15,625 nucleotides of DNA from a virus (IMGVR_UViG_3300030294_000003), one strand, 5' to 3'. Numbered from the stretch's first letter, positions 162 to 12,731 are shown. The notes: generated by a model not told the origin, from the sequence alone. Program-made: numbers and translations.

Positions 162-199
162 GAGAGAGTTGGCAGGTTAAACACTGGAGTATTTTCTCC
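162..199 (+). ncRNA. Putative small RNA, copy 1 (conserved core)
   Basis: GAGAGA GTTGG CAG gttaaaca CTG GAGTATTTTCTCC; no ORF downstream of P1. Confidence 0.6.
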
Positions 200-237
200 A
201 ACACGATGTGAAATTTTTCGTTAATAGAAGTTAAAGA

Positions 238-320
238 AAAATCCCTTTCAACCGCTTATCTCTAATTTGCATCTGTGCGCCCAAATGTATTGATTAAAAG
301 TTTGTGTTGAAAGGAATTTT
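238..320. terminator. Long-loop inverted repeat, possible bidirectional terminator
   Basis: AAAATCCCTTTCAAC (238-252) / GTTGAAAGGAATTTT (306-320), 1 mismatch; lies between convergent units. Confidence 0.4.
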
Positions 321-450
321 ATGTTATTATATTTTGATATATATTTTGGTTGGATTTCTAATGTAGTGCATCGGTTACGGGTTTATAGTTTTAAGCTTTA
401 CGGCTGTCCTTTGTTACGTTCCATTTTATTCGTGTGTTTTTAGGCGATTG

Positions 451-540
451 TTAAACGTTGTGAATTACATAAACAGGATTGTTGAGTTCATCGACTCCAA
501 TACAGTACTTAGCTGTTAAAATGTTTTTTTCATATGCCAT
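451..540 (-). CDS. Small hypothetical protein, 29 aa (MAYEKNILTAKYCIGVDELNNPVYVIHNV)
   Basis: Translated by hand; first ATG after the M2 leader. Confidence 0.45.
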   Translation of the reverse strand: MAYEKNILTAKYCIGVDELNNPVYVIHNV

Positions 541-597
541 AAGTTTTAAATGTTAATATTATTTGTTTATATTGTTTAATTACTTTTAATTGATACA

Positions 598-642
598 CAA
601 AGATAGGTAATTATCCTATAATTTGCTAATGGAATTTGTTAA
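598..642 (-). promoter_or_regulatory. Promoter module M2
   Basis: TTAACAAATTCCATT...TATCTTTG, 37-nt spacing. Confidence 0.8.
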
Positions 643-655
643 ATAAAATTGTATT

Positions 656-1264
656 TTATCTTAGTTCCGTTGGTATTTCTTTTTTCCATTCAGAAATTTT
701 ATCTTGAATTAGGTTTATTTCTTTTTCCAAATTTTTAATAGCCAATTTTGCAGCTTCATAGGCTTCATAACTGTATTCTTTTTCTAAACGAGGTTCTACA
801 TCGGCATCAACAAATTTGTTGTCAGAATCAATCATAATTAAGTCAAAAAACGATTTTCTAACATACGTACAATAAGCGGTTGTAAATTTGTGTTCCCCAC
901 CTGAATAATAGCCACCGTTAACACATATTGAAATTTCCAAAGAGGTGTAATCACTTTTTTTATCAAGAAAAAACCATTGTAACCCTTTTCTGTTTTCAAA
1001 TGTTAAGCCAAATTTTTCAGTAAATTCATTGAAAAATTCATCAAAAAATTTAGTTCTATTACCACCCATTACAAACAATTTTTTCCCAATTAAACGGGAT
1101 TTATTTTCCAATAGAAAAGACTGAAAGTTTTTAACCATTTCATTCATTTCTTTACGTGCATTAATAATTCTTATAGCCTGTTCTTTTCTGTATTTGGCAC
1201 GTTCATCAGATTCAAATTTTGCTAATGCTTTATACTCTTCAATTTCTTTGTCAGTCAGTTTCAT
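656..1264 (-). CDS. Hypothetical protein, 202 aa, helical/coiled-coil termini
   Basis: ORF track; own promoter M3 and AT-rich leader. Confidence 0.85.
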   Translation of the reverse strand: MKLTDKEIEEYKALAKFESDERAKYRKEQAIRIINARKEMNEMVKNFQSFLLENKSRLIGKKLFVMGGNRTKFFDEFFNEFTEKFGLTFENRKGLQWFFLDKKSDYTSLEISICVNGGYYSGGEHKFTTAYCTYVRKSFFDLIMIDSDNKFVDADVEPRLEKEYSYEAYEAAKLAIKNLEKEINLIQDKISEWKKEIPTELR

Positions 1265-1302
1265 AAGGCGTTTATTTTAGTTCGTTTTAATTAATCGATA
1301 TA

Positions 1303-1347
1303 CAAAGATAATGTATTTCGTTGGTATTCGAAAATGGGATTTGTTAA
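1303..1347 (-). promoter_or_regulatory. Promoter module M3
   Basis: TTAACAAATCCCATTTT...TATCTTTG, 37-nt spacing. Confidence 0.8.
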
Positions 1348-1799
1348 ATTAATTTTATTAACTCCTGAACAATTACAGAATAAGGAACGTAAAAAGTACC
1401 AATTTCGTTCATTCTTTCAGCTTCACAATTAATCAAATACTGTGCATTCTCCTTTGTTAAATTTTCATACTTTTGGCTGTAATATGGATTAAAAAATTGA
1501 CCGTTGTAACGTTTGGTATCAATTGTTAAATCGTAACGAAATTTATTTTGTCGTACCCATACACCGAAATATGAAAAACTTGAACAATCCCCATCACATG
1601 TTTCGAAATGTCCGTATTTGTTTTCTAAAATACTATCAATTGTTAAAAATGGTAGTTGTTCTAAAAAACGTTGTTCAATCATTTTTTTGTTGTAGTCCTT
1701 ACAAAATTTTTCGTATTCAGATACACCCATCAATTTTTCCAATTTATTTTGGGCATCGATATACAAATCACTTTCAATCCAAACTTCGCTATCATTCAT
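1344..1799 (-). CDS. Hypothetical protein, 151 aa
   Basis: ORF track; promoter M4; stop TAA lies inside the TTAAC of M3. Confidence 0.85.
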   Translation of the reverse strand: MNDSEVWIESDLYIDAQNKLEKLMGVSEYEKFCKDYNKKMIEQRFLEQLPFLTIDSILENKYGHFETCDGDCSSFSYFGVWVRQNKFRYDLTIDTKRYNGQFFNPYYSQKYENLTKENAQYLINCEAERMNEIGTFYVPYSVIVQELIKLI

Positions 1800-1829
1800 A
1801 ATCTTTTGATTTATTAATTAATTGATATA

Positions 1830-1874
1830 CAAATGTAGTGAAATTACCAATACAAAGCAAATGTAATTTGTTAA
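1830..1874 (-). promoter_or_regulatory. Promoter module M4
   Basis: TTAACAAATTACATTTG...TACATTTG, 37-nt spacing. Confidence 0.8.
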
Positions 1875-1901
1875 AAAATGATCTAAATAAAACATATTCT
1901 T

Positions 1902-1946
1902 TTAACAAATTCGGGTTTGAAATACCAATGAAAAGCACTATCTTTG
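1902..1946 (+). promoter_or_regulatory. Promoter module P2 (drives ncRNA copy 2)
   Basis: TTAACAAATTCGGGTTTG-N19-TATCTTTG, 37-nt spacing. Confidence 0.8.
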
Positions 1947-1964
1947 TATCATAAAATAAGAGTA

Positions 1965-2004
1965 GAGAGGTTGGTAGTCGTAACAAAACTAAAGTATTTT
2001 CTCC
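1965..2004 (+). ncRNA. Putative small RNA, copy 2 (conserved core)
   Basis: GAGAG GTTGG TAGT cgtaacaaa ACTA AAGTATTTTCTCC; TAG/CTA is a compensatory change relative to CAG/CTG. Confidence 0.6.
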
Positions 2005-2041
2005 GTTATATAGAATAAAATAATGTTAACTGAAGTTAAAA

Positions 2042-2072
2042 AATCCCTTAACATTTATTGTGTTAAAGGATT
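2042..2072. terminator. Hairpin, likely bidirectional terminator
   Basis: AATCCCTTAACA-TTTATTG-TGTTAAAGGATT, between convergent units. Confidence 0.5.
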
Positions 2073-2078
2073 CTAAAA

Positions 2079-2153
2079 TTAATTCCACTTATTTTCTTGT
2101 TTGCTTATTTTTTTGTAAGGTTGTTTATCCTTATATGTTAATGTTTTTGCCAT
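2079..2153 (-). CDS. Possible basic micropeptide, 24 aa (MAKTLTYKDKQPYKKISKQENKWN)
   Basis: Translated by hand; follows 2175-2345 with an A-rich leader; very short. Confidence 0.3.
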   Translation of the reverse strand: MAKTLTYKDKQPYKKISKQENKWN

Positions 2154-2174
2154 TGGTATTTTATTTAAATTATT

Positions 2175-2345
2175 TTACTTTAAATCTGATATATCAAACC
2201 TTGTTACTTTTCCCTCAATCGTATATATTAATCCATTCCAAGTTAAAAATTCATAACCAGCAATTTTTGCCACTTCAATTGCCTTATCAATATGCCCCCA
2301 CATCGATGGGCGTAGCGAACTGTTAAAAATATATTTCCAACTCAT
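2175..2345 (-). CDS. Hypothetical protein, 56 aa (MSWKYIFNSSLRPSMWGH...GYEFLTWNGLIY...)
   Basis: Translated by hand; starts 6 nt after the stop of 2352-2675. Confidence 0.75.
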   Translation of the reverse strand: MSWKYIFNSSLRPSMWGHIDKAIEVAKIAGYEFLTWNGLIYTIEGKVTRFDISDLK

Positions 2346-2351
2346 ATTATT

Positions 2352-2675
2352 TTAATTAAATTGTTGGTTATAACGTTTTATTTTTTCTTTATATAATTCT
2401 TTCAAATAACGTGAATGATTACGACGTGTAACGATTTTAACATCGTAACCGATTGATTTTAATTCTTTCAATAGGTCTGCATATTCTGATGGTTTTGCAT
2501 TACATGTAAAGTCGTTTATATCCCACCTACAAACAGAATGTTGCTCGACACGCATATAAGAACCTACATAATCTTCCCCCTCAATTTGGTACGGAAAAAC
2601 GGCAATTACTTCTTTATTCCCGTATTTAAATTTCCTGAACTGAACTTCAATTAAAATATTTTTATCTGTTTCCAT
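2352..2675 (-). CDS. Hypothetical protein, 107 aa, resembles a phage family with V.FRK..VIAVFP..SY...QH..A.P.EY..LL.EL..IGY
   Basis: ORF track; promoter M5; family resemblance is from memory, function unknown. Confidence 0.85.
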   Translation of the reverse strand: METDKNILIEVQFRKFKYGNKEVIAVFPYQIEGEDYVGSYMRVEQHSVCRWDINDFTCNAKPSEYADLLKELKSIGYDVKIVTRRNHSRYLKELYKEKIKRYNQQFN

Positions 2676-2705
2676 AACGATTGATTATTTATTAATTTCT
2701 TATCA

Positions 2706-2750
2706 CAAAGATAGTTTAAATTGTCTATTCGTGAAAATGGAATTTGTTAA
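2706..2750 (-). promoter_or_regulatory. Promoter module M5
   Basis: TTAACAAATTCCATTTTCACGAA...TATCTTTG, 37-nt spacing. Confidence 0.8.
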
Positions 2751-3133
2751 TATTTGCTTACGTTTATACCTCTTTCGTGTTGAATTTCGCAAAGTAAATA
2801 ATCTGCATTCATTTCGTTTGGAACACTACAATAGCACTCAAATATTTTTTGCTCTTTATTCGTAACAACTGTTAAATTTCCTTCACAATCGGTTTTAATA
2901 CATTCAATTTTTTCACCGTTGTAAGTACTACCAACATATTTTTGTGGTATTAACGTTTGTTCACTATTCGCTTTTATGTAATAGATATACATATCCAACT
3001 CATTCAATTTACTGTAATCAATTTCATTATCATCAAACCACATATATAATGTATTGATGTCTATTGCTTCTTTAACATTTATTAAATGTTTGTAAGCTTC
3101 AACCAATTCTTCATCTATATAAACTTTTTTCAT
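2747..3133 (-). CDS. Hypothetical protein, 128 aa
   Basis: ORF track; promoter M6; stop inside the TTAAC of M5. Confidence 0.85.
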   Translation of the reverse strand: MKKVYIDEELVEAYKHLINVKEAIDINTLYMWFDDNEIDYSKLNELDMYIYYIKANSEQTLIPQKYVGSTYNGEKIECIKTDCEGNLTVVTNKEQKIFECYCSVPNEMNADYLLCEIQHERGINVSKY

Positions 3134-3165
3134 TGTGTTTGATTTATTTAATTATTTAATGTTCA

Positions 3166-3210
3166 CAAATGTACTATATTTAAACCATTCGTGAAAATGG
3201 AATTTGTTAA
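3166..3210 (-). promoter_or_regulatory. Promoter module M6
   Basis: TTAACAAATTCCATTTTCACGAA...TACATTTG, 37-nt spacing. Confidence 0.8.
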
Positions 3211-3211
3211 A

Positions 3212-3472
3212 TTATGATTCTAAATCGGAAAAATATTCGACCACATCATCGTAAAACTTTTCAGTAATTCCACCAAATGTATAAAGATGTTCATTAACCT
3301 TAACTTCCATTAAATTGATACCCGCTTTTTCAATAATTGTATTCATTCCTTGAGGTCTTAAATAGAATACATTTTTATTTAATGCATACATTAGAATAAT
3401 TTCATCGATTAAAAATAATAAATGTTCAACAACTTGTTTTTCACTTGAATTGGTAGGGTTAATATTTTTCAT
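3212..3472 (-). CDS. Hypothetical protein, 86 aa
   Basis: ORF track; tightly linked to 3478-3762. Confidence 0.8.
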   Translation of the reverse strand: MKNINPTNSSEKQVVEHLLFLIDEIILMYALNKNVFYLRPQGMNTIIEKAGINLMEVKVNEHLYTFGGITEKFYDDVVEYFSDLES

Positions 3473-3477
3473 AATGA

Positions 3478-3762
3478 TTAATATTTAAGAGTTTCTTTGT
3501 TAAATTGTTCAACTGAAATTATTTCAATTTGTGCTCTGCTTGCATCATAAGACATTCCACTATTATCTTTATACTTTTCACTACCATCTTCTTTTAATTG
3601 CTTGTGAGCATATTGAATTGCTTTTTTGGCTTGTGAAATAGTATTATAATACAAAATATAAGAATAAAACATTCCATTTCTGTTAAAAATAGAACCACCC
3701 AAATTATTAACAAGTTTGTGATTCCCGTTAATTTGACCTGTCACTCTAATAATTGCTTTCAT
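3478..3762 (-). CDS. Hypothetical protein, 94 aa
   Basis: ORF track; promoter M7. Confidence 0.8.
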   Translation of the reverse strand: MKAIIRVTGQINGNHKLVNNLGGSIFNRNGMFYSYILYYNTISQAKKAIQYAHKQLKEDGSEKYKDNSGMSYDASRAQIEIISVEQFNKETLKY

Positions 3763-3788
3763 AAAAACTGTTTGTTTTAATTATGATA

Positions 3789-3833
3789 CAAAGATAATAT
3801 TTTCACTTCATTCCTTAAAATGAAATATGTTAA
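3789..3833 (-). promoter_or_regulatory. Promoter module M7
   Basis: TTAACATATTTCATTTT...TATCTTTG, 37-nt spacing. Confidence 0.8.
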
Positions 3834-4000
3834 TATTTAAAAAAGTGTGCTGTTAATTTCATTGTCGTTGGTACGTTAACTTCTTTAAAACGTTCCTTTG
3901 CAGCCTTACATGTTTTGGATTGTTCAGTACTACATATATAACAACCATCTAAAAAAATATCAATTTTGTAGCAACCTGTTTGACTGTTATATTTTTTCAT
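3830..4000 (-). CDS. Hypothetical Cys-containing protein, 56 aa (MKKYNSQTGCYKIDIFLDGCYICSTEQSKTCKAAK...)
   Basis: Translated by hand; promoter M8; stop inside the TTAAC of M7. Confidence 0.75.
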   Translation of the reverse strand: MKKYNSQTGCYKIDIFLDGCYICSTEQSKTCKAAKERFKEVNVPTTMKLTAHFFKY

Positions 4001-4033
4001 TTTATTTTTGATTAATTAATTTTGATTACCTTA

Positions 4034-4078
4034 CAAAGATACGGGAAATATTTCATTCCCGCAACTCTTATTTGTTAA
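4034..4078 (-). promoter_or_regulatory. Promoter module M8 (hairpin in spacer)
   Basis: TTAACAAATAAGAGTTGCGGGAA...TTCCCGTATCTTTG, 37-nt spacing. Confidence 0.75.
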
Positions 4079-4218
4079 AAATTCCGTTTTATTGGTATGT
4101 CATTTAATTTAACATCGTCAAAATAAAATGCTTTTTCGTAAGCTGCAATTTCAGCTTTTTCACAGTCTTTAACATACCGTTTATGACCATCGCCCCAAGT
4201 AATTAAATTTGTTTCCAT
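4075..4218 (-). CDS. Hypothetical protein, 47 aa (METNLITWGDGHKRYVKDCEK...)
   Basis: Translated by hand; stop inside the TTAAC of M8. Confidence 0.7.
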   Translation of the reverse strand: METNLITWGDGHKRYVKDCEKAEIAAYEKAFYFDDVKLNDIPIKRNF

Positions 4219-4230
4219 AAGTTAAGGGTT

Positions 4231-4425
4231 TTATTTGTAATATTTGTCCGCTGTAAATTGCCTATCAAAACATACCATACTTCGATTACTGTTTTCATAT
4301 CTATTAACAATTGATATTGCTTCTTCTCTTGTACAACCTCTTCTCAAAATTTCACGTCGACGACTTACTTTAAACACTCTGTAAACCTTATACGTTCCAA
4401 TGTATTTTTTTGCCTCTACTCTCAT
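4231..4425 (-). CDS. Basic hypothetical protein, 64 aa (YKVYR...G.T.EEA motif)
   Basis: ORF track; part of the M9 operon. Confidence 0.75.
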   Translation of the reverse strand: MRVEAKKYIGTYKVYRVFKVSRRREILRRGCTREEAISIVNRYENSNRSMVCFDRQFTADKYYK

Positions 4426-4432
4426 AATGATT

Positions 4433-4555
4433 TTATTTACAAATAATGTTACTAAAATGGTTTGAAAAATCCGCTTGTGAAATACCTATAATGAATAAAA
4501 CTAAAACCACCAATGCGATAACTAAATTTATATTAACTTTTTTTAGTGTTTTCAT
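4433..4555 (-). CDS. Small membrane/signal-peptide-like protein, 40 aa (MKTLKKVNINLVIALVVLVLFIIGISQA...)
   Basis: Translated by hand; basic N-terminus followed by a hydrophobic stretch. Confidence 0.65.
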   Translation of the reverse strand: MKTLKKVNINLVIALVVLVLFIIGISQADFSNHFSNIICK

Positions 4556-4564
4556 TTGTTTCTA

Positions 4565-4672
4565 TTATAGGTTGCTTGCTATGAATAAACCGATTGAATA
4601 ATAAGCTAAACAGGCAAATACCAATTTTTCAGCTTTTGAACGTTTTTTTACGAATGCTATAACTTTTTTCAT
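4565..4672 (-). CDS. Small membrane peptide, 35 aa (MKKVIAFVKKRSKAEKLVFACLAYYSIGLFIASNL)
   Basis: Translated by hand; first ORF after M9, leader AAACGCCTTATG. Confidence 0.65.
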   Translation of the reverse strand: MKKVIAFVKKRSKAEKLVFACLAYYSIGLFIASNL

Positions 4673-4712
4673 AAGGCGTTTGTTTAATTTTGTTTTCTTT
4701 AATTTCAATACG

Positions 4713-4757
4713 TAAAAGTAATGAAAAATACCCATTAACGAAAATGGAATTTGTTAA
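4713..4757 (-). promoter_or_regulatory. Promoter module M9
   Basis: TTAACAAATTCCATTTT...TACTTTTAC, 37-nt spacing. Confidence 0.75.
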
Positions 4758-4930
4758 AGTTTATCAACTGCATTTATAAAATCTGCAACCTCAATTCCAC
4801 CGATACAATAGTCACCGTTTGGTAAATAAATGTATTGACTGAAATGTTCTTTCGTATGGTTAACAAGTTGAAAAACTTTGTGGTTGTCAATCATATAATT
4901 GAAAATCGCTTTTTTAAGTTCTAAGTTCAT
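4754..4930 (-). CDS. Hypothetical protein, 58 aa (MNLELKKAIFNYMIDNH...GDYCIGGIEVADFINAVDKL)
   Basis: Translated by hand; stop inside the TTAAC of M9. Confidence 0.75.
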   Translation of the reverse strand: MNLELKKAIFNYMIDNHKVFQLVNHTKEHFSQYIYLPNGDYCIGGIEVADFINAVDKL

Positions 4931-4951
4931 AGCCGTATATTGTTTATTTGA

Positions 4952-5167
4952 TTAATAATCAATTGATTTAGAATTATAATAATTAACTTCTAACCAATTT
5001 TCAACCTCTTTATTAAAATTTTCTAATTCATCATTATCTTCTGCATCAGGAATGTTAACGCCTTCTAATTCGCCTAAAAAAATGTTTTTTTCCCAAATAT
5101 CAATTCCGCCATCAAATTGTTTACAAATAAATTCATCCACCCCAACAAAAACACTAATTGTATTCAT
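4952..5167 (-). CDS. Acidic hypothetical protein, 71 aa
   Basis: ORF track; promoter M10; 17 D/E vs 4 K/R. Confidence 0.8.
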   Translation of the reverse strand: MNTISVFVGVDEFICKQFDGGIDIWEKNIFLGELEGVNIPDAEDNDELENFNKEVENWLEVNYYNSKSIDY

Positions 5168-5206
5168 AACTTTATTTTTTAAATTGTTTTATTTAATTTC
5201 AATATG

Positions 5207-5251
5207 TAAAAGTAAACAAAAGCATCTACAACTGCAAATGCTTTTTGTTAA
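5207..5251 (-). promoter_or_regulatory. Promoter module M10 (hairpin in spacer)
   Basis: TTAACAAAAAGCATTTG-N20-TACTTTTAC, 37-nt spacing. Confidence 0.75.
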
Positions 5252-5266
5252 ATTAAATCAGATTTT

Positions 5267-5797
5267 TTATCTGAATGGATTGTAATTAACATCTTCCAAC
5301 GATTTAATAGCTTCAACATCCAATTGTAATTCACTAAAGTAATTCCAGCCATTGGATAACCCTTTTTCACATAGTTCAATAAATGGGTCGTATAATGGTT
5401 TTAAATCTTCAAATTTTGAACCGCAATACATTACGTTAGCTTTTAAATCAACTATTGCCATCATTCTGATATAACCATAAAAATATTGAATTTCATTATT
5501 ATCAAATAATTCAATGTTTTCATTAACAAATTTGCAACCTTTGTTTATTGATTCTATACCGTTAAAATCAAATGCCATTGTTTTGATATGGTTATCATCG
5601 TTGTAATAACGAACCAACAAAGCGTAATAAGTTGATTTTTTTGGTGCGCACAATTTACCTGTTTTCGGGTCAATAGTTTGTGTAACGTGCCTGTAACCCT
5701 TTTTAGGGCTAAATTCCATAGAATCATACAAAGTGGTTTTTAATCGAAATCCCCAAGGGTAATTCTCAACTGCAATTTTTTCACTTGTCTTAATCAT
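5267..5797 (-). CDS. Hypothetical protein, 176 aa, resembles a phage family with YPWGF..E...KG.R...QT..PKKSTY
   Basis: ORF track; promoter M11; family resemblance is from memory. Confidence 0.85.
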   Translation of the reverse strand: MIKTSEKIAVENYPWGFRLKTTLYDSMEFSPKKGYRHVTQTIDPKTGKLCAPKKSTYYALLVRYYNDDNHIKTMAFDFNGIESINKGCKFVNENIELFDNNEIQYFYGYIRMMAIVDLKANVMYCGSKFEDLKPLYDPFIELCEKGLSNGWNYFSELQLDVEAIKSLEDVNYNPFR

Positions 5798-5850
5798 AAT
5801 AGTATATTTTTTAAAAGCGTTTAATTATTTCGTTTTAATTAATTGATATA

Positions 5851-6113: not shown

Positions 6114-6125
6114 ATTTTTTATTTG

Positions 6126-6447: not shown

Positions 6448-6492
6448 CAAAAGTAAGCTTTTAACCAACACGAAACAAATGCTTTTTGTTAA
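6448..6492 (-). promoter_or_regulatory. Promoter module M12
   Basis: TTAACAAAAAGCATTTG-N20-TACTTTTG, 37-nt spacing. Confidence 0.8.
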
Positions 6493-6509
6493 AAAACAAA
6501 TTAATTATT

Positions 6510-6554
6510 TTAACAAATTCCATTTTACTAATCCATTATATTATATTACTTTTA
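6510..6554 (+). promoter_or_regulatory. Promoter module P3
   Basis: TTAACAAATTCCATTTT...TACTTTTAC, 37-nt spacing. Confidence 0.75.
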
Positions 6555-6580
6555 CATCGAAATCAAAACAATATAGCATC

Positions 6581-6934
6581 ATGGAAAAGAAATCTATTTT
6601 CACAATTGAAGTTTATAACATGACAGGTGGAAAGTTCAATAGTGTTACAAACACGTTTAGCAGTGCTTTAAACGCTTTAGAAAACATTCTTTGTAACCTA
6701 CAAGCGCAAAGTAAATTTGAGCATTATCAGGTCTTTATTCAAGAGTCAAAATTTGATAAAAACGGATTGTTGGTTATGAAAACAAAAGTTAACCGTTTTA
6801 ATTTGAATGTTTTTTCAGAATTTGAATTAACAAATGATAGTCATCAATTTCATTTTATTGCAATGGATTTAATTGAAAAAATGAATAAAAGAATTGAATT
6901 GAATGATGGAATAAAATGGGATTTGTTAAAATAA
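6581..6934 (+). CDS. Hypothetical protein, 117 aa (start revised to MEKKSIF)
   Basis: The track start at 6479 lies upstream of promoter P3; ATG 6581 follows the leader. Confidence 0.75.
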   Translation: MEKKSIFTIEVYNMTGGKFNSVTNTFSSALNALENILCNLQAQSKFEHYQVFIQESKFDKNGLLVMKTKVNRFNLNVFSEFELTNDSHQFHFIAMDLIEKMNKRIELNDGIKWDLLK

Positions 6935-6947
6935 AAAATAAATTAAT

Positions 6948-6992
6948 TTAACAAAAAGGGTTTGCAGAAGTAAGCCCTTTTCTGTATCTTTG
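6948..6992 (+). promoter_or_regulatory. Promoter module P4 (terminator-like hairpin in spacer; drives ncRNA copy 3)
   Basis: TTAACAAAAAGGGTTTG-N20-TATCTTTG, 37-nt spacing. Confidence 0.8.
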
Positions 6993-7010
6993 TATTACAA
7001 TAATGGATGA

Positions 7011-7051
7011 GAGAGGTTGACAGGATGCACAAATCCTGAAGTATGGTCTCC
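7011..7051 (+). ncRNA. Putative small RNA, copy 3 (conserved core)
   Basis: GAGAG GTTGA CAGGAT gcacaa ATCCTG AAGTATGGTCTCC; 6-bp hairpin. Confidence 0.6.
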
Positions 7052-7092
7052 TTGACATCTAAACTTTTTTTGTTAAAAAAACTTAATAAAAA

Positions 7093-7124
7093 CTTAACCC
7101 ATATTTCTATCAATATAGGTTAAG
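7093..7124. terminator. Hairpin, likely bidirectional terminator
   Basis: CTTAACCCATATT-TCTATC-AATATAGGTTAAG, between ncRNA copy 3 and the convergent ORF 7150-7509. Confidence 0.5.
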
Positions 7125-7149
7125 CAAAGTCATTTTATGTCAAGTTTAG

Positions 7150-7509
7150 TTAAATAAAGCTATCAATTATTCTTTTTATTTCATTTTTATTTTGTTTAAT
7201 CATTTCGTCACTTTCCTGAAATTTAGCACTTAATTTAATAGTTGGGTCAGCATTTTTAACACTGTTAACTAATTTGTTTTTTGATGCTACATCGAAAAAT
7301 TTACTAACAAATCTTTCCTGTTCATAAATTAACGTTTCAAGTCTTACAAGTTCAAAAATTTTGAGTAGGTATTTTTTAACATCTATTTCCTTTGTGTAAT
7401 TCATCGACCGTGGGGAAATTCCGTAATTGAAAATACGGCTACCTTCGTCCGTTGTAACTTCAAAACCAATGGTTTTAAAATCGTTGTCTTTAACTAAAAT
7501 TGCTTTCAT
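7150..7509 (-). CDS. Hypothetical protein, 119 aa
   Basis: ORF track; promoter M13. Confidence 0.85.
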   Translation of the reverse strand: MKAILVKDNDFKTIGFEVTTDEGSRIFNYGISPRSMNYTKEIDVKKYLLKIFELVRLETLIYEQERFVSKFFDVASKNKLVNSVKNADPTIKLSAKFQESDEMIKQNKNEIKRIIDSFI

Positions 7510-7557
7510 AACTTATAAGTTTTTAATGAATTGATTTATTTCCTTTTAATTATACAA

Positions 7558-7602
7558 CAAAGATAATCTTTTGAATCCATTCGTGAAAATGGAATTTGTT
7601 AA
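7558..7602 (-). promoter_or_regulatory. Promoter module M13
   Basis: TTAACAAATTCCATTTTCACGAA...TATCTTTG, 37-nt spacing. Confidence 0.8.
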
Positions 7603-7619
7603 AAAACAAAGTAATTTAT

Positions 7620-7664
7620 TTAACAAATTCCATTTCGGTATATGGTTGAAATGAATTACTTTTA
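7620..7664 (+). promoter_or_regulatory. Promoter module P5
   Basis: TTAACAAATTCCATTTCGGTATATGG...TACTTTTAC, 37-nt spacing. Confidence 0.75.
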
Positions 7665-7693
7665 CATATCAATTTAATTAAAACAAACAAAAT

Positions 7694-7894
7694 ATGAAAA
7701 CGTTAACAGTATTGCAGCAAATAAATATTTTATTGAAGCATGCCAATAGAAACGGTTTAGAAATTAAATTTTTTAACGTTCACGACAATTGTGTATTTGC
7801 TAATTTATATAATCCTGAAAAAGATGTTTATTCTTATCAAACGGTTTTTTGTGTTATTGATGATTGTGAATATAAATTTACTTTAATACCTTAA
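7694..7894 (+). CDS. Hypothetical protein, 66 aa
   Basis: ORF track; promoter P5. Confidence 0.8.
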   Translation: MKTLTVLQQINILLKHANRNGLEIKFFNVHDNCVFANLYNPEKDVYSYQTVFCVIDDCEYKFTLIP

Positions 7895-7910
7895 TTAAAA
7901 AAAATTGGTT

Positions 7911-8099
7911 ATGAAAACAATTATAATAAACGAATGGTTAAAATTCACATACCGTGAAGATAGAAGTGTTAAATTTGAACCTGCATACCGCAATGGGGCA
8001 TATATTAACGTTTTTATACATTCAGATGAATGTGAAAAATTCTTAAAGGAAAATGATATTAATTATCAAATCAGTAACAAAAACAATATTGATAAATGA
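7911..8099 (+). CDS. Hypothetical protein, 62 aa (start revised to ATG 7911)
   Basis: ORF track 7905 uses TTG; ATG 7911 is in frame; stop overlaps the next start (ATGA). Confidence 0.75.
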   Translation: MKTIIINEWLKFTYREDRSVKFEPAYRNGAYINVFIHSDECEKFLKENDINYQISNKNNIDK

Positions 8100-8371
8100 A
8101 AAACTATGTACGTTTTTATGAAATGTCAACAGGTAAATGGGTTGATGGAAAAATGAATTGGGATATGAAATATCCTATTGAGGGTTGTGGTAGTGATTCT
8201 GTAATGTATTACGATGGGCGTTTGAATTTATCATCAATATGTTATCAGGCAAGACAAAGAATCATTCAAATGAATGCAGTTAATAGAATAGTAGGCTTTA
8301 AAGTCTATAAAAACGGTAATGAAGTTTATTCAACCGTTCCAACCGCAAAAAATTGCTTAAAATATGAATAA
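8096..8371 (+). CDS. Hypothetical protein, 91 aa (YVRFY..STG...GSDSV..YDGR motif)
   Basis: ORF track; translationally coupled to the previous ORF. Confidence 0.85.
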   Translation: MKNYVRFYEMSTGKWVDGKMNWDMKYPIEGCGSDSVMYYDGRLNLSSICYQARQRIIQMNAVNRIVGFKVYKNGNEVYSTVPTAKNCLKYE

Positions 8372-8372
8372 G

Positions 8373-8388
8373 ATACTCGAATGAGTAT
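8373..8388. repeat. Palindrome ATACTC-GAAT-GAGTAT, copy 1
   Basis: Recurs at 9240, 13579 (inverted) and 14184. Confidence 0.75.
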
Positions 8389-8401
8389 GTAAATAATTAC
8401 T

Positions 8402-8446
8402 TTAACATATTCCATTTGTACCAACGATTAAAATATATTACTTTTA
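8402..8446 (+). promoter_or_regulatory. Promoter module P6
   Basis: TTAACATATTCCATTTG-N20-TACTTTTAC, 37-nt spacing. Confidence 0.75.
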
Positions 8447-8471
8447 CATATCAATTTAAAGCAACAATGTT

Positions 8472-8696
8472 ATGAAAAAAGACTTTTTAAAAATAGGGTT
8501 ACGATTTTATGTTGAGGATGAAATAAACACTTTTAGCGTTGTTTCCTTTGATTCAGAATCTATGTACATTTATTCCGAATTATTAAAAGAGAATATTGAA
8601 AAACCTTTTAAGGTCTCTCACTTTTATAAACAAGTCTCTGATGGTTTTTTAACTATTTCTACAGACAAGTCTCTGATGTTTATTCAACAATTTTAA
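8472..8696 (+). CDS. Hypothetical protein, 74 aa
   Basis: ORF track; promoter P6. Confidence 0.8.
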   Translation: MKKDFLKIGLRFYVEDEINTFSVVSFDSESMYIYSELLKENIEKPFKVSHFYKQVSDGFLTISTDKSLMFIQQF

Positions 8697-8721
8697 ATTC
8701 ACAAATAAATAATAAATAGTT

Positions 8722-9051
8722 ATGACAGATTTAACAATTGCCCAACAGTGGGAAGCGGTGAATAAAATGAATTTTTTTGAGATTGAAGTTGTAGACCAAC
8801 GAACCAACGAACAGGATTATATCATTTTTAACATTGATATTGATTCAAAAGTTGATGGAACGCCTGTTTTTAGAGCCGAACACGTTGCACTTAGTGAAGC
8901 AGAAGAAAAAAGTCCATTGGTAGCTTTTTGTTATTCTGAGATTGATGAAAACTTCTCGTTGGATCAAAATCTAGGTTCATTGATGGATGAATGTGTTGAT
9001 GCTATAATCAATAGTGAATTTTATGAATTTCCAAAAGATGAAGAAGAATAA
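8722..9051 (+). CDS. Strongly acidic hypothetical protein, 109 aa
   Basis: ORF track; 27 D/E vs 6 K/R. Confidence 0.85.
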   Translation: MTDLTIAQQWEAVNKMNFFEIEVVDQRTNEQDYIIFNIDIDSKVDGTPVFRAEHVALSEAEEKSPLVAFCYSEIDENFSLDQNLGSLMDECVDAIINSEFYEFPKDEEE

Positions 9052-9059
9052 TTAATAAT

Positions 9060-9233
9060 ATGGTACAAACAACTAATAATCATCTAACAGTATACAAATA
9101 CCTATCAGAAACCGCTGATAGGAGATGTAGAAAATATAAAGAACTTGATAAACAATTGGATAAACTTAGTGAAAAATATGGTAAAGAATCCAAAGAAGTA
9201 AACGATTTTTTTAATCAATTTATTATCCTATAA
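9060..9233 (+). CDS. Hypothetical protein, 57 aa (MVQTTNNHLTVYKYLSETADRRCRKYKELDKQLDKL...)
   Basis: Translated by hand; starts 8 nt after the previous stop. Confidence 0.7.
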   Translation: MVQTTNNHLTVYKYLSETADRRCRKYKELDKQLDKLSEKYGKESKEVNDFFNQFIIL

Positions 9234-9239
9234 TTAACA

Positions 9240-9255
9240 ATACTCGAATGAGTAT
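9240..9255. repeat. Palindrome ATACTC-GAAT-GAGTAT, copy 2
   Basis: Identical to 8373-8388. Confidence 0.75.
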
Positions 9256-9265
9256 CTAACATCCT

Positions 9266-9310
9266 TTAACAAAAATGGTTTGTGAAAATGAATCCTTTTC
9301 TTTACTTTTG
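9266..9310 (+). promoter_or_regulatory. Promoter module P7
   Basis: TTAACAAAAATGGTTTG-N20-TACTTTTG, 37-nt spacing. Confidence 0.8.
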
Positions 9311-9339
9311 CATATACAAATTAATAAAACAAACGCTTT

Positions 9340-9762
9340 ATGAAAAGGCAATTTAAAATTATAACAAGTGTAGCTACACACATTTGTACTATCAACAAAA
9401 AGAATGACATCTTTTTTGATGTATTTGAAAGGGAAATAGAAAATATGGGTAATGCTGATGAAAAATTTATTGTTGAAAATATGGATGGTAAAATACTATT
9501 CACTGATACAGATGTTAAAGAATGGGAAAATGATGGTGGTGTTTATATTTGTCGCTTTTGTGGTAAGCGTATTGAAAGTGAACACGATGTATATGTTGAG
9601 GATGGTGCAAGTGAGTGTCATTGTGAGGACTGCCATCCGATTCTATTCCCAAATGATGATGTATGGCAAGCTTTATATAAAAAGTACAACATCGACAGCG
9701 AAACAGGCGAAGAGCGTAATAACTTTTATGGTGAATATTATTATTGGACTACTGCACCGTAA
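9340..9762 (+). CDS. Hypothetical protein, 140 aa, putative Zn ribbon (CRFC...CEDC)
   Basis: ORF track; two CxxC motifs; promoter P7. Confidence 0.85.
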   Translation: MKRQFKIITSVATHICTINKKNDIFFDVFEREIENMGNADEKFIVENMDGKILFTDTDVKEWENDGGVYICRFCGKRIESEHDVYVEDGASECHCEDCHPILFPNDDVWQALYKKYNIDSETGEERNNFYGEYYYWTTAP

Positions 9763-9767
9763 TTTAT

Positions 9768-9812
9768 TTAACAAATTCTATTTCGATATATCATTGTTAA
9801 AGCTTATCTTTG
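9768..9812 (+). promoter_or_regulatory. Promoter module P8
   Basis: TTAACAAATTCTATTTC...GTTAAAGCTTATCTTTG, 37-nt spacing. Confidence 0.8.
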
Positions 9813-9849
9813 TATAGTAATATAATTCAAATAAATAAACCAATCAGTT

Positions 9850-10110
9850 ATGTCAGAAAAAGAAAAATATAATTTTTTTCTCGATGGTGATTTATCCCAA
9901 ATGTCATTTCAAAGGACATTCTTAAATAATCGTGGAATCAGTACAGAACAAAACAATGTCTACCCATGTTTAAGGCAATGTGATGTTAAAAATGCTTTAA
10001 CTTTAATATGGGAACAAAGTTGTGATGGTTGGTGGCATTACAAAAAAAAGTATGTTGAATTAGAAATTTGTACCGCTGAAGAATATAACAGCAAATTATC
10101 AAGATGGTAA
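9850..10110 (+). CDS. Hypothetical protein, 86 aa
   Basis: ORF track; promoter P8. Confidence 0.8.
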   Translation: MSEKEKYNFFLDGDLSQMSFQRTFLNNRGISTEQNNVYPCLRQCDVKNALTLIWEQSCDGWWHYKKKYVELEICTAEEYNSKLSRW

Positions 10111-10123
10111 AATATTATTTTAT

Positions 10124-10168
10124 TTAACAAATTCTATTTTCATACATCAATGTTAAAGCTTATCTTTG
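10124..10168 (+). promoter_or_regulatory. Promoter module P9
   Basis: TTAACAAATTCTATTTT...GTTAAAGCTTATCTTTG, 37-nt spacing. Confidence 0.8.
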
Positions 10169-10202
10169 TCATATCAATTTAATTAATTCAAATAAACATA
10201 TT

Positions 10203-10361
10203 ATGTCAGAAAGAGAATGCGCAATAAAAGTAGGTGAAGCAGTTTTACAACTTCTTAATCTTGAAATAAATAAAGTTGGTTTAATACCTACAGTGTGGGG
10301 TGATAAGACCGTTGAGGGGTTAGGATTCACTATTATGGGAATTGTAGAAATAAATAAATAA
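10203..10361 (+). CDS. Hypothetical protein, 52 aa (...GLIPTVWGDKTVEGLG...)
   Basis: Translated by hand; first ORF after P9. Confidence 0.75.
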   Translation: MSERECAIKVGEAVLQLLNLEINKVGLIPTVWGDKTVEGLGFTIMGIVEINK

Positions 10362-10367
10362 TGTTTT

Positions 10368-10670
10368 ATGAAAAATCCGTATAAAGTAAGCTATCAAAAA
10401 CATTGGTCTGAAGATGGTACAGTGTATACCCAACGTGTTAAAATTTCACGTGAAGATTATTTAACATTTTGTGAAGAAATGGATTTGGAATTTATTAACA
10501 AATTTCCATTTAAAAAACATTATTGTCATACCGATTCTGATACAATCTACATGAGGTCAAAAGATACCAATGCAAAGGTCGTTTACTTAAAATCAACTGA
10601 AACACGTTTTTTTTGTTTTATGATGATGATTAATCTAAAAGATAGAAACACTTATTTAGTTATAGCTTAA
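10368..10670 (+). CDS. Hypothetical protein, 100 aa
   Basis: ORF track. Confidence 0.75.
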   Translation: MKNPYKVSYQKHWSEDGTVYTQRVKISREDYLTFCEEMDLEFINKFPFKKHYCHTDSDTIYMRSKDTNAKVVYLKSTETRFFCFMMMINLKDRNTYLVIA

Positions 10671-10685
10671 ACTAATAATATATTT

Positions 10686-10967
10686 ATGAAAAAACTTAAA
10701 ATTACAAAAGGCGAATGGTTTATAAGTGGTGATAAATATCCAACTATACAATCAAAAAATACAAATGAAAATATCGTTGTAACATATCCTACAATTGCTA
10801 CAATAAATTCAACGTTTATTGATGAAATAGAATATAAAGCAAATGCAAAACTAATTGCTGCATCGCCAAAAATGCTTGCGGCACTTGAAGTGTTAATGGA
10901 AAATTCAAGTAATCTACATGAGTTCCAAAAAATTTATATTCAGGAAGCTCTTGATGCAGCACTTTAA
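10686..10967 (+). CDS. Phage protein of the widespread 'H/ITPGPW...ANARLIAAAPELL' family, 93 aa, function unknown
   Basis: ITKGEW near the N-terminus and ANAKLIAASPKMLAAL match the motif as I recall it. Confidence 0.8.
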   Translation: MKKLKITKGEWFISGDKYPTIQSKNTNENIVVTYPTIATINSTFIDEIEYKANAKLIAASPKMLAALEVLMENSSNLHEFQKIYIQEALDAAL

Positions 10968-11017
10968 TTTTAATTAATTATATAGTCCAAATTGATAATT
11001 GTTAAAATATAAATATT

Positions 11018-11158
11018 ATGATTGATTTTAATTGCCTTTCAGAAAATAGCGAAGTTGTTCTTTTATTAAAACAGAGAGAAGAATTAGATAAAAAGATAAA
11101 TGAATTAGATGAATTTGCATTGCTACTATATGAAATTGCTAAGTTGAACGAAGAATAA
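11018..11158 (+). CDS. Hypothetical coiled-coil peptide, 46 aa (MIDFNCLSENSEVVLLLKQREELDKKINELD...)
   Basis: Translated by hand; heptad-like pattern. Confidence 0.65.
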   Translation: MIDFNCLSENSEVVLLLKQREELDKKINELDEFALLLYEIAKLNEE

Positions 11159-11185
11159 AAAACAAGTAAATAATAATAATATATT

Positions 11186-11464
11186 ATGAGCGAACAAGAA
11201 ATTAAATATAAACAAATGCTCAACAACGTGGCATTGTTAACAGATTATAATGACCACACAGAAGCTCGTATAGCCATTGCAAAGTTCTTTGGTATGCGTA
11301 ATAGGATTGATGATTTAGAATCATTACAACGTCAACAAAATAGGCTTGGGTATATGACAGAAGACCTATTGAAAGAACGTGCCGAAATAACAAAGACAAT
11401 ATACAATCGTTTGATTTTTACTTGTGGTATTGAAATAGCTAAAGAAGTAATGTCAAAACTTTAA
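11186..11464 (+). CDS. Hypothetical protein, 92 aa (LTDYNDHTEA motif)
   Basis: ORF track; stop inside the TTAAC of P10. Confidence 0.85.
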   Translation: MSEQEIKYKQMLNNVALLTDYNDHTEARIAIAKFFGMRNRIDDLESLQRQQNRLGYMTEDLLKERAEITKTIYNRLIFTCGIEIAKEVMSKL

Positions 11465-11505
11465 CAAATTACATTTTAGTATATCACTGTTAAAGCGTAT
11501 CTTTG
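11461..11505 (+). promoter_or_regulatory. Promoter module P10
   Basis: TTAACAAATTACATTTT...GTTAAAGCGTATCTTTG, 37-nt spacing. Confidence 0.8.
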
Positions 11506-11538
11506 TACTATCAAAATAATTAAACAAAACAAGTTATT

Positions 11539-11700
11539 ATGAAAAATAAAGCACACGTATTTCAACACAGAACTTCGGGTCTACAAATGTTCGTTTATCA
11601 TCAACCTTCAGAAGATTTAGCAAAATCTGAGTTATATGGTATTGTAGCAAATAGTAGCGATTGGATTTATTTAGGACAAAAAACGGCACAAGATGCATAA
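11539..11700 (+). CDS. Hypothetical protein, 53 aa (MKNKAHVFQHRTSGLQMFVYH...)
   Basis: Translated by hand; sole ORF between P10 and P11. Confidence 0.7.
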   Translation: MKNKAHVFQHRTSGLQMFVYHQPSEDLAKSELYGIVANSSDWIYLGQKTAQDA

Positions 11701-11715
11701 AATAAACATTATAAA

Positions 11716-11760
11716 TTAACAAATTCTATTTTAGAATGTCGTTGTTAAACCGTATCTTTA
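11716..11760 (+). promoter_or_regulatory. Promoter module P11
   Basis: TTAACAAATTCTATTTT...GTTAAACCGTATCTTTAC, 37-nt spacing. Confidence 0.75.
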
Positions 11761-11799
11761 CACTGTAATTAAATTAAACAAATAAAAACATAAAATATC

Positions 11800-12021
11800 A
11801 TGGCAAAGAAAAATCTTATTACATTAGCAAAAGGGTTGGATTTTACAACCGAATCAGAATATTTTGATTATCTTATTGATTCATATCTCTATGGTAATTT
11901 CAATCAATGTAAAAGACTTTTCAATGATATGAAAAAAGAAGCCCAAAAGAAATTTATTAAGTATGTTGATAATTCATATACTAATAAAGACATTATGGAT
12001 TTTTATTTCAACCTATTGTAA
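11800..12021 (+). CDS. Hypothetical protein, 73 aa
   Basis: ORF track; promoter P11; TAATG overlap with the next gene. Confidence 0.85.
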   Translation: MAKKNLITLAKGLDFTTESEYFDYLIDSYLYGNFNQCKRLFNDMKKEAQKKFIKYVDNSYTNKDIMDFYFNLL

Positions 12022-12317
12022 TGAAAAACGTAATTATAATTGGTGCTGGCGGTACGTATGGAACATCTACAACCATTGCACAACGCATTATAGAAGCACG
12101 AGAACAGGGTATTGAAGTTGTGGAGTATAAACCAAACAGCGAACAAAGTAAAATATTAGAACTTGCAGACCAACTAAACAGCTTAACAGAGCGTGAAAAC
12201 AAAGCTATGAGAGAAGCAGAACCTTTTATACTTCAGTCAATTCCACACGATGAAATACCATTCTATCCAAATAAAAAAATCAAAGGTTATCAACAGCCTT
12301 ATAAATTCCACAAATAA
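12021..12317 (+). CDS. Hypothetical protein, 98 aa, Rossmann-like N-terminal glycine motif
   Basis: ORF track; MKNVIIIGAGGTYG. Confidence 0.8.
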   Translation: MKNVIIIGAGGTYGTSTTIAQRIIEAREQGIEVVEYKPNSEQSKILELADQLNSLTERENKAMREAEPFILQSIPHDEIPFYPNKKIKGYQQPYKFHK

Positions 12318-12318
12318 T

Positions 12319-12537
12319 ATGGGGTTAAGATGTGAACAACACGTTGAGGATGGTTATAGTTACAACAGGTTTACAGACACACAAATGAGACCTATTTTTA
12401 GACAATGTAAATACAATGCAAAATACAAAGTCAAAGCAGAGAATACAAAAGGTTATGTAAGCGAAATGAACGTTTGTACAAAACACAAAAACAATTTAAT
12501 TAAACGATTTAAAATAATTGATATTCAAATAATTTAA
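12319..12537 (+). CDS. Hypothetical Cys/His protein, 72 aa (start revised to MGLRCEQH)
   Basis: In-frame ATG 1 nt after the previous stop; CxxH...CxxH; stop inside the TTAAC of P12. Confidence 0.75.
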   Translation: MGLRCEQHVEDGYSYNRFTDTQMRPIFRQCKYNAKYKVKAENTKGYVSEMNVCTKHKNNLIKRFKIIDIQII

Positions 12538-12578
12538 CAAATTCCATTTCCGTATGTCAACCTTATTCCGTATCTTTG
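12534..12578 (+). promoter_or_regulatory. Promoter module P12 (drives ncRNA copy 4)
   Basis: TTAACAAATTCCATTTC...TATCTTTG, 37-nt spacing. Confidence 0.8.
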
Positions 12579-12594
12579 TATCATAATAAAGGTA

Positions 12595-12632
12595 GAGAGG
12601 TTGGCAGACAATAAATCTGGAGTATATTCTCC
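12595..12632 (+). ncRNA. Putative small RNA, copy 4 (conserved core)
   Basis: GAGAG GTTGG CAGA caataaa TCTG GAGTATATTCTCC. Confidence 0.6.
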
Positions 12633-12680
12633 GTTGGATACTATATATCAATTGTTAAAAAAATAATTATTGAACCAAAA

Positions 12681-12731
12681 GGAGTATAATCTTCGGTCTA
12701 TTAAATATTTTAACATCCGCCAACATCTCTC
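12681..12731 (-). ncRNA. Putative small RNA, copy 5 (conserved core, faces copy 4)
   Basis: Minus strand GAGAG AT GTTGG CGG atgttaaaatatttaataga CCG AAGATTATACTCC; CGG/CCG is a compensatory change. Confidence 0.55.

Follow-up and report, generated by a model that had tools for sequence, protein, structure and literature searches.

Putative small RNAs built on a conserved hairpin element in uncultured Bacteroidota jumbo phages

The stretch of viral DNA examined here, IMGVR_UViG_3300030294_000003 (15,625 nucleotides (nt), hereafter the window), comes from a phage of peat origin with a genome of about 263 kb; a protein of the window was found on a contig of 263,276 bp, and window DNA is present in many peat metagenome runs. 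The window is AT-rich and dense with small ORFan genes, contains no tRNA, and carries 28 copies of a TTAACAAATTC box, which is part of a Bacteroidetes-type promoter module. Five of the promoters are followed by a conserved hairpin element of about 45 bases. From its sequence, the element represents a previously undescribed family of putative small RNAs of uncultured Bacteroidota jumbo phages.

The five copies had been proposed in a sequence-only reading of the window, and they were recovered at the same sites and nowhere else. The pattern GAGAG-N0-3-GTTGR gives seven overlapping matches at exactly five sites (160/162, 1965, 7009/7011 and 12595 on the plus strand, 12731 on the minus strand), for an expected count of 0.03 in shuffles. 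The family covariance model R2, run with filters off, recovered the five copies at 41–56 bits and found no sixth, the next match in the window having E = 0.38. Read directly, all five contain GAGAG, GTTGR, a hairpin, RAG and then N6-CTCC. Copies 1, 3 and 4 have CAG/CTG at the base of the hairpin, whereas copy 2 has TAG/CTA and copy 5 CGG/CCG, a covariation already noticed in the sequence-only reading and also found in about 50 homologues. Each copy stands behind a Bacteroidetes-type promoter consisting of a TTAAC box, a TTTG-like −33 element and a TAnnTTTG −7 box. The copies had also been described as free of open reading frames (ORFs); no ORF of at least 40 amino acids (aa) starts behind any of them in its own direction, with the sole exception of a 40-aa ORF at 321–443, inside a terminator repeat region. 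As had been pointed out, GTTAA lies 3' of CTCC in copies 1–4 (at 220, 2025, 7072 and 12654, with a measured spacing of 20–21 nt), and copies 1–3 end in inverted repeats (at about 239–320, 2042–2073 and 7092–7125). No sequence variant was found inside any element in four DNA runs, which contain fragmentary contigs of the same phage. The features are listed below, A and B being the two subtypes of the element and bit scores those of R2.

104–148, plus strand: promoter of copy 1, with a TTAACAAATTC box at 104–114, a TTTC/TTTG-like −33 element and the −7 box TATCTTTA at 141–148
160–199, plus strand: core of copy 1, subtype A, with GAGAGAGAG, GTTGG, hairpin CAG..CTG and GAGTAT-TT-TCTCC (52.1 bits, E = 4e-13)
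214–224, plus strand: T-run and GTTAA of copy 1, 20 nt after CTCC
239–320: inverted repeat AAATCCCTTTCAAC / GTTGAAAGGAATTT 3' of copy 1, probably serving copy 1 and the convergent minus-strand genes as a two-way terminator
1902–1946, plus strand: promoter of copy 2, with a TTAAC box at 1902–1912 and the −7 box TATCTTTG at 1939–1946
1965–2004, plus strand: core of copy 2, subtype A, with the compensated hairpin base TAG..CTA (53.8 bits)
2025–2073, plus strand: tail of copy 2, with GTTAA boxes at 2025–2029 and 2035–2039 and a terminator-like hairpin at about 2042–2073
6944–6992, plus strand: promoter of copy 3, with a TTTAACAAAAAGGG box region and the −7 box TATCTTTG at 6985–6992
7009–7051, plus strand: core of copy 3, subtype A, with a 6-bp hairpin CAGGAT..ATCCTG (52.7 bits)
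7065–7125, plus strand: tail of copy 3, with a T-run, GTTAA at 7072–7076 and a hairpin at 7092–7125 common to the convergent gene 7150–7509
12534–12578, plus strand: promoter of copy 4, with a TTAAC box at 12534–12544 and the −7 box TATCTTTG at 12571–12578
12595–12632, plus strand: core of copy 4, subtype A (56.2 bits)
12633–12680: AT-rich spacer between the convergent copies 4 and 5, in which GTTAA at 12654–12658 is, on the other strand, the TTAAC after the T-run of copy 5
12681–12731, minus strand: core of copy 5, subtype B, with GAGAGAT, GTTGG, hairpin CGG..CCG and AAG-ATTATA-CTCC
12748–12794, minus strand: promoter of copy 5, with the −7 box TACCTTTG (12755–12748) and a TTTTAAC box near 12790

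Copy 5 scores weakly (14.8 bits) under a model of subtype A, as against 41 bits (E = 5e-10) under R2. The orthologue of copy 1 at locus L046 has a compact hairpin at the matching downstream place. In agreement with the earlier statement that the motif was not recognised as any riboswitch or ribozyme, Rfam 15 gave no match at the gathering score in the window, and at E ≤ 10 nothing overlapped any copy; a permissive Rfam scan of 12570–12760 gave matches at chance level only (mir-1 at 20 bits for a cut-off of 45.6, L10 leader at 13.8 bits).

Homologues were searched by a strict-motif scan of the metagenomes of the Joint Genome Institute, followed by covariance models R1 and R2. The scan returned 35 loci, 6 in GC-rich coding DNA without promoter and 29 in AT-rich phage DNA. 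The 29 phage loci are on 26 contigs from about 12 data sets and share homologues of window genes. With R1 and R2, about 50 copies were found on these contigs, including copies outside the reach of the motif pattern; such a search had been suggested in the sequence-only reading, and it brought homologues with the compensatory hairpin changes described below. The motif is kept while its neighbours diverge, the flanking proteins of orthologous copies being 39–77% identical. Three loci were fetched through a neighbouring protein only, in order to escape ascertainment by the motif, and the element was at the same place in all three.

Several sets of matches were rejected. Loci L047, L053, L061, L062, L071 and L077 from the metagenomes and L081 and L082 from the genome contigs fall in GC-rich coding sequence without promoter and were regarded as chance matches. 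The matches of strict and relaxed A and B motifs in IMG/VR are chance occurrences inside coding sequence (L001–L003; a methylase-like ORF for L104 and L105; an integrase-like ORF for L094 and others). Nothing comparable was found in IMG/VR and GenBank phages by motif scans, megablast and tblastn. A scan of IMG/VR for the promoter module gave 35 single, unrelated matches, none with the element, and blastn of the region of copies 4 and 5 gave only matches with E ≥ 2, among them a Lak-phage match inside coding sequence. Locus L004, which encodes a protein relative with 59% identity, has neither promoter box nor element. The motif strings are absent from the literature searched.

Within the phage genome, the copies are gathered. 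A walk along the genome by exact-protein look-ups revealed two further copies, 4 and 6 kb to the left of the window, so that a total of seven surround the divergent centre of the early region within 19 kb; the same walk found no copy in the next 12.8 kb to the left or 12.5 kb to the right. The copies in the window are single, 0.1–5.6 kb apart, and copies 1–3 and 5 fire against neighbouring genes. For about half of the copies in relatives, the next gene runs in the same direction, under a promoter of its own. With copies either co-directional with or opposed to the next gene, orientation looks free, as expected of self-contained units.

The anatomy of the element was derived from 43 distinct copies, 36 of subtype A and 7 of subtype B. 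Every copy begins 9–12 nt 3' of a Bacteroidetes-type TAnnTTTG −7 box, and the distance from the end of this box to GTTG is 17–23 nt throughout, so that a transcript would begin a few bases before AGAGAGAG. Subtype A reads AGAGAGAG-G-UUGR-CAG(loop)CUG-RAGUAU-NN-UCUCC. Subtype B, which includes copy 5, consists of G-GUUGG, a CGG/CCG hairpin, AAG, six bases and CUCC, with flanks unlike those of subtype A and the −7 box TACCTTTG in every copy. Where present, subtype B faces a subtype A copy across 48–62 AT-rich bases, as copy 5 faces copy 4; this convergent layout recurs in L052, L054, L057, L063, L065, L079 and L106–L108. The loop, already described as variable in the sequence-only reading, measures 7–20 nt across the family and is made of 193 A, 146 T, 67 G and 35 C. 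CUCC is followed by 14 bases of poor conservation, six consecutive T and RTTAA, with a distance from CUCC to RTTAA of 20–21 nt in essentially all subtype A copies. That the loop varies by 13 nt while this distance is fixed argues for a geometry set by the folded core and not by the DNA distance from the promoter. Further TTAAC/GTTAA boxes and a terminator-like hairpin follow downstream; no consensus structure was found in the 3' tail.

Some additional sequence features accompany the element. The T-run/RTTAA tract, present in all family members and located in the window at 214–234, 2025–2039, 7065–7084 and 12650–12660, is the inverse of the upstream TTAACAAAT box of the promoter, so inverted boxes bracket each unit; in A/B pairs, these two boxes together make up a palindrome rich in AT. 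In a subset of subtype A copies, a second motif, UUUAACAUA-N3-CCACAGUARYGUYGGU, occurs about 45 nt after CUCC as a small bulged hairpin just before the next promoter module (L110:6520–6560; L049, L051, L058, L059, L066, L067 and L048). The window also holds four ATACTC-N4-GAGTAY hairpins for 0.2 expected, at 8373–8388, 9240–9255, 13579–13594 and 14184–14199. Two of them are just after gene ends and two are about 10–15 nt after a TACCTTTR −7 box, at the same promoter-relative place as the element. Their GAGTAT arm equals the conserved GAGUAU of the element, and AUACUCC occurs in those subtype B copies that are of the same kind as copy 5.

The inner hairpin, P2, was assessed on a set of 45 distinct sequences. 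Its three pairs are all standard in 45 of 45, and double-sided changes occur at each of them (C-G to U-A; A-U to G-C, U-A or G-U; G-C to C-G). The 13 compensated cells thus counted were reached by none of 500 shuffles, and pairing collapses to 41–60% when the partner strand is slid. The stem extends to 4–6 bp in 37 of the 43 copies, which none of 2000 loop shuffles equalled; the fourth pair is U-A in 20 copies and A-U in 14, with the second-highest mutual information in the element. A compensated change is also seen between orthologues, copy 2 having UAG/CUA and its L046 counterpart CAG/CUG. From these sequence comparisons, selection for pairing in P2 is well supported. The outer pairing, which the sequence-only reading had left ambiguous, is predicted by folding as a helix GAGA/UCUC, without covariation. 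This helix is plausible but, being sequence-invariant in subtype A and shifted in register in subtype B, unproven. Outside P2, no covarying column pairs were detected except a switch from A47-U51 to U47-A51 that coincides with the split between A and B.

A module at the level of DNA is another reading. Like a transposon end or the promoter–early–stem-loop (PeSL) units of T4-type phages, the units might be small mobile or recombining cassettes made of a promoter and a palindrome; the hairpin would form as a DNA cruciform or in single-stranded DNA, and the unit would be a boundary or terminator between gene cassettes. Both strands form the hairpin equally well, the A/B pairs are large inverted repeats, and the copies are placed between cassettes in both orientations. 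Syntenic places differ in what they carry: between 6479–6934 and 7150–7509, the window has subtype A only and nine relatives have A plus B, and L046 has a copy after the homologue of gene 4231–4425 where the window has none. In run X15, one contig of low depth from a related strain passes from position 41 to 596 and so skips 42–595, which contain the unit of copy 1, the terminator repeat and a tiny minus-strand ORF. Together with the variable presence, this contig suggests that units are gained and lost as cassettes. However, the strongly asymmetric loop sequence and the invariable one-sided promoter at a fixed distance argue for a strand-specific product, and single copies show no transposase, target-site duplications or terminal inverted repeats. 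Nor is the core directly followed by a uridine tract, as an intrinsic terminator needs; the U6 tract starts 14 nt after the base of the core, and separate downstream hairpins play this role. A purely DNA-level module is considered improbable.

Another observation, an unexpected one, allows a reading at the level of the polymerase. The subtype A core contains sequences resembling a promoter of the sigma-70 type (in the window at 169–195, 7017–7047 and 12601–12628, and in the subtype A copies of L046–L080). The reference features of such a promoter are TTGACA at −35, a spacer of 17±1 bp, a TATAAT-like −10 hexamer with T at −12, A at −11 and T at −7, and a purine start 7–8 nt downstream. Of 36 subtype A copies, 29 have an exact TTGACA and the others TTGGCA, TTGGCT or TTGGTA; TATNNT is present in all 36, and the spacer between the two is 15–17 bp in 31 (range 15–19). 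At 3 nt after CUCC, where a start 7–8 nt after the −10 hexamer is expected, there is a purine in 35 of 36 copies, preceded by a pyrimidine in 29. A simple promoter scan lists copy 4 at 10 of 12 matches. The probability that such a match arose by chance is estimated to be small, allowing for a dozen comparisons by eye. The element may then act in cis, at or with RNA polymerase and not as a free RNA: as a second promoter inside the early unit, where the subtype A core could be read by a phage-directed sigma factor, as a site of sigma-dependent pausing or attenuation, or as a put- or Q-like device in which the nascent hairpin, together with the U-tract 14 nt downstream, decides whether transcription stops at the terminator. 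The fixed distances to the upstream −7 box and the downstream T-run, and the position of about half of the relatives' copies upstream of a co-directional gene, are in line with such a role.

On the other side, the phage's own promoters, and by inference those of the host, are of the Bacteroidetes −33/−7 type; the primary sigma factor of Bacteroidetes is not known to use promoters of the Escherichia coli type. No further enrichment of sigma-70-like sequences was found over about 44 kb, the window having 4 for 1.4–1.6 expected, three of which are copies 1, 3 and 4. Subtype B keeps GGTTGG, the hairpin, RAG and CTCC, yet has no −10 hexamer and an unusable spacer (22–27 bp in 6 of 7 copies). Compensatory changes within the spacer and the −35 hexamer, whose departures from the consensus are compensated in the hairpin, are not accounted for by a promoter, and neither are the AGAGAGAG tract and the variable loop. 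Finally, copies 1–3 are opposed by convergent genes and have nothing to express downstream. The two readings do not exclude each other; action on the polymerase is regarded as somewhat unlikely, and the RNA model is ranked first.

The conserved GUUG recalls a particular kind of RNA decoy. The element could be an RNA anti-CRISPR, that is a solitary unit mimicking a repeat from the CRISPR array of a host type VI-B system, so as to load Cas13b with a useless RNA. Type VI-B repeats are characterised by a length of 36 nt, a poly-U loop and ends, 5'-GUUG and CAAC-3', that are complementary (bioRxiv 10.1101/092577), and solitary repeat units are promoter-proximal, intergenic and non-coding, with no cas gene nearby (PMC10651486), as are the copies of the element. 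GUUG starts all copies, and CAAC is found at 35–40 nt in 10 of 43. It is absent in the other 33, however, the loops are A-rich and of variable length instead of poly-U, and the conserved closing helix GAGA/UCUC lies outside GUUG. Among 185,579 species genomes, none yielded a CRISPR-like array carrying the motif, a weak test since the pattern demanded the GAGAG prefix. SRUFinder calls a solitary repeat unit on a BLAST bit score of at least 41.1 with 90% coverage of a known repeat. The precedent of RNA anti-CRISPRs invoked in the sequence-only reading does not hold in the form of a Cas13b-repeat mimic, which is highly improbable.

The variable segment that follows CUCC raises the question of base-pairing with other RNAs. 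The 5' domain might be a protein handle, and the 14–20 variable nt after CUCC might pair with targets, as in a guide-like or antisense regulator; or else the ATACTC-N4-GAGTAT hairpins that follow early genes might offer their AUACUC arm for pairing with the conserved GAGUAU. A variable segment of fixed length does follow a conserved handle, GAGTAT is common to the palindromes at 8373, 9240, 13579 and 14184, and the copy 5 kind of subtype B has the complementary AUACUCC. Yet the segment is AT-rich and unconserved between orthologues, no nuclease or Argonaute-like gene was found among 25 neighbouring proteins searched with Pfam, and the complementarity extends over just 6–8 nt. A guide-like or antisense role is judged very unlikely.

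Known structural motifs were also compared. A kink-turn requires a 3-nt bulge, tandem sheared G.A/A.G pairs and an opposite strand running into a canonical helix. In the element, GAGAG-GUU-GA-CAG on the 5' strand agrees with this and CUG on the 3' strand is followed by GA, but the six further conserved bases GUAUNN intervene before the UCUC helix and positions 2b/2n vary R/R; as one strand only fits, the kink-turn was rejected. The sarcin-ricin/loop-E motif, the hammerhead, loop B of the hairpin ribozyme, integron attC and a mimic of the anti-Shine-Dalgarno sequence were dropped by eye, the required strand sequence or order being missing.

The neighbouring genes were searched for indications of function. 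Pfam gave no family for 25 neighbouring proteins, with no cas-like match. The gene call in ORF 6479–6934 is a protein of 117 aa starting at an internal methionine (MEKKSIF...), not of 151 aa, and the homologues have 111–113 aa; 6479–6580 is therefore probably promoter and leader, with a TTAACAAATTC box inside at 6510–6520. This 117-aa protein, always encoded upstream of the syntenic copy, has a sufficiently confident predicted fold (predicted local distance difference test score of 78) and no match in the PDB at E ≤ 0.001. An ORFan of 411–455 aa, with 59–85% identity among relatives, is always directly downstream of, and co-directional with, one subtype A copy; it was found at the following places.

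L110:6580–7947 (about 4–5.5 kb to the left of the window): 411–455-aa ORFan
L059:151–1431: 411–455-aa ORFan
L066:2435–3724: 411–455-aa ORFan
L069:900–2135: 411–455-aa ORFan
L060:355–1257: 411–455-aa ORFan

Its C-terminal block SFAVIGDTKPIK..LGGKYN..GWIF is invariant, and it has no Pfam family and no atlas match at or above 0.9. Elsewhere in the window, a weak sub-threshold Rfam match to the GIR1 ribozyme at 13787–13851 on the minus strand (25.9 bits for a cut-off of 100, most of the model missing) falls in a palindrome-rich, gene-free island and is almost certainly a chance match to a hairpin.

The reading that is favoured, with considerable reservation, is that the copies are the genes of one family of early phage RNAs, short and non-coding. 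The host RNA polymerase would start at the Bacteroidetes-type early promoter and, a few bases on, the RNA would fold into a conserved 5' domain composed of a short outer helix, GAGA/UCUC, an internal loop that is asymmetric and rich in purines (5' G-GUUGR; 3' RAGUAU-NN) and the 3–6-bp hairpin with its freely variable loop. The 14-nt variable linker, the U6-RUUAA tract at fixed distance and a terminator hairpin would complete the unit. The downstream terminator hairpins fit the stand-alone RNAs put forward in the sequence-only reading; we infer their ends, and a length that is probably about 100–130 nt. The invariant internal loop would most likely present a surface recognised by a protein. With many copies transcribed from strong early promoters, this ligand would be supplied in large amount early, to sequester or to recruit the protein.

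A number of points weigh against these RNAs. No RNA run is among the runs that contain window DNA, and no transcript was seen; the neighbouring proteins gave no candidate for a binding partner. The outer helix is paired in 83% of cases, with no compensatory change. The hairpin is equally good in antisense (mean stem of 4.26 versus 4.35, with 10 copies better each way), so the strand is assigned from the promoter and from the strong asymmetry of the conserved loop sequences. The near-consensus sigma-70 promoter within the subtype A core is not predicted by a pure RNA model. Moreover, much of the apparent invariance is partly due to ascertainment, as the metagenome loci were fetched with the strict motif.

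That the RNAs are protein decoys is possible, as a guess. They might form a new class of RNA counter-measure, unrelated in sequence to CRISPR repeats and ToxI: an early decoy at high dose, whose invariant internal loop would capture a host immune or RNA-handling protein or, with TTGACA/TATNNT in mind, a component of sigma or polymerase, as a mini promoter mimic. This more specific proposal is judged unlikely.

Few structured RNA families are known from Bacteroidota phages, and none was found from their jumbo phages. The element is small, highly conserved, present in at least seven copies per genome and easily synthesised, which would offer a handle for pull-downs and for RNA sequencing during infection, provided that a host is found. 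Should it bind a host protein, it would join a very short list of RNA-based tools of phage take-over or anti-defence. Should the embedded sigma-70-like promoter be real, it would be of a class foreign to the host, implying that the phage changes the specificity of the polymerase, a change coupled to an RNA hairpin. In either case, the covariance model lets annotators mark such loci as RNA genes instead of empty intergenic DNA.

Compared with known systems, the element recalls CsrB/RsmZ and 6S, RNAs of several copies or sites in which a protein is bound by conserved unpaired motifs. The 6S RNA shows that an RNA can imitate a promoter. The element has no GGA hairpin loops, however, is far smaller than 6S, lacks the open-bubble architecture and has no homology in Rfam. 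ToxI and pseudo-ToxI are likewise phage-borne structured RNAs able to titrate a host protein, and pseudo-ToxI had been cited as a precedent in the sequence-only reading. This parallel fails, as ToxI units are tandem direct repeats of about 36 nt beside the gene of an endoribonuclease toxin, whereas the copies of the element are single, up to kilobases apart and each provided with a promoter. A ToxI-like array was rejected, with no toxin family among the neighbouring proteins and no Rfam match to ToxI.

The PeSL cassettes of T4-type phages are also reiterated units of an early promoter and a stem-loop, interspersed with small early genes where the genome of a large phage is plastic. Their stem-loops do not form a conserved 45-nt motif with an invariant internal loop, unlike the element, whose structure lies inside the transcript, 3' of the promoter. 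HK022 put and the lambdoid promoter-proximal pause elements are structured or promoter-like elements in the first tens of nt of an early or late transcript, followed by a terminator, and the element could similarly act on the transcribing polymerase. put consists of two stem-loops and sits before long operons. The element has one hairpin domain, many of its copies face convergent genes, and its hexamers are of the E. coli type in a phage of Bacteroidota.

Solitary repeat units, or Racr (Camara-Wilpert et al. 2023, PMC10651486), are small non-coding units behind their own strong promoter, without cas genes and in several copies, and a dose-dependent decoy role is plausible for the element as well. 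The survey of solitary repeats found no type VI units at all (PMC10651486), and the element has no demonstrated likeness to any CRISPR repeat, the type VI-B hallmarks failing in most copies. In other respects, solitary repeat units are the described layout that comes closest to the element.

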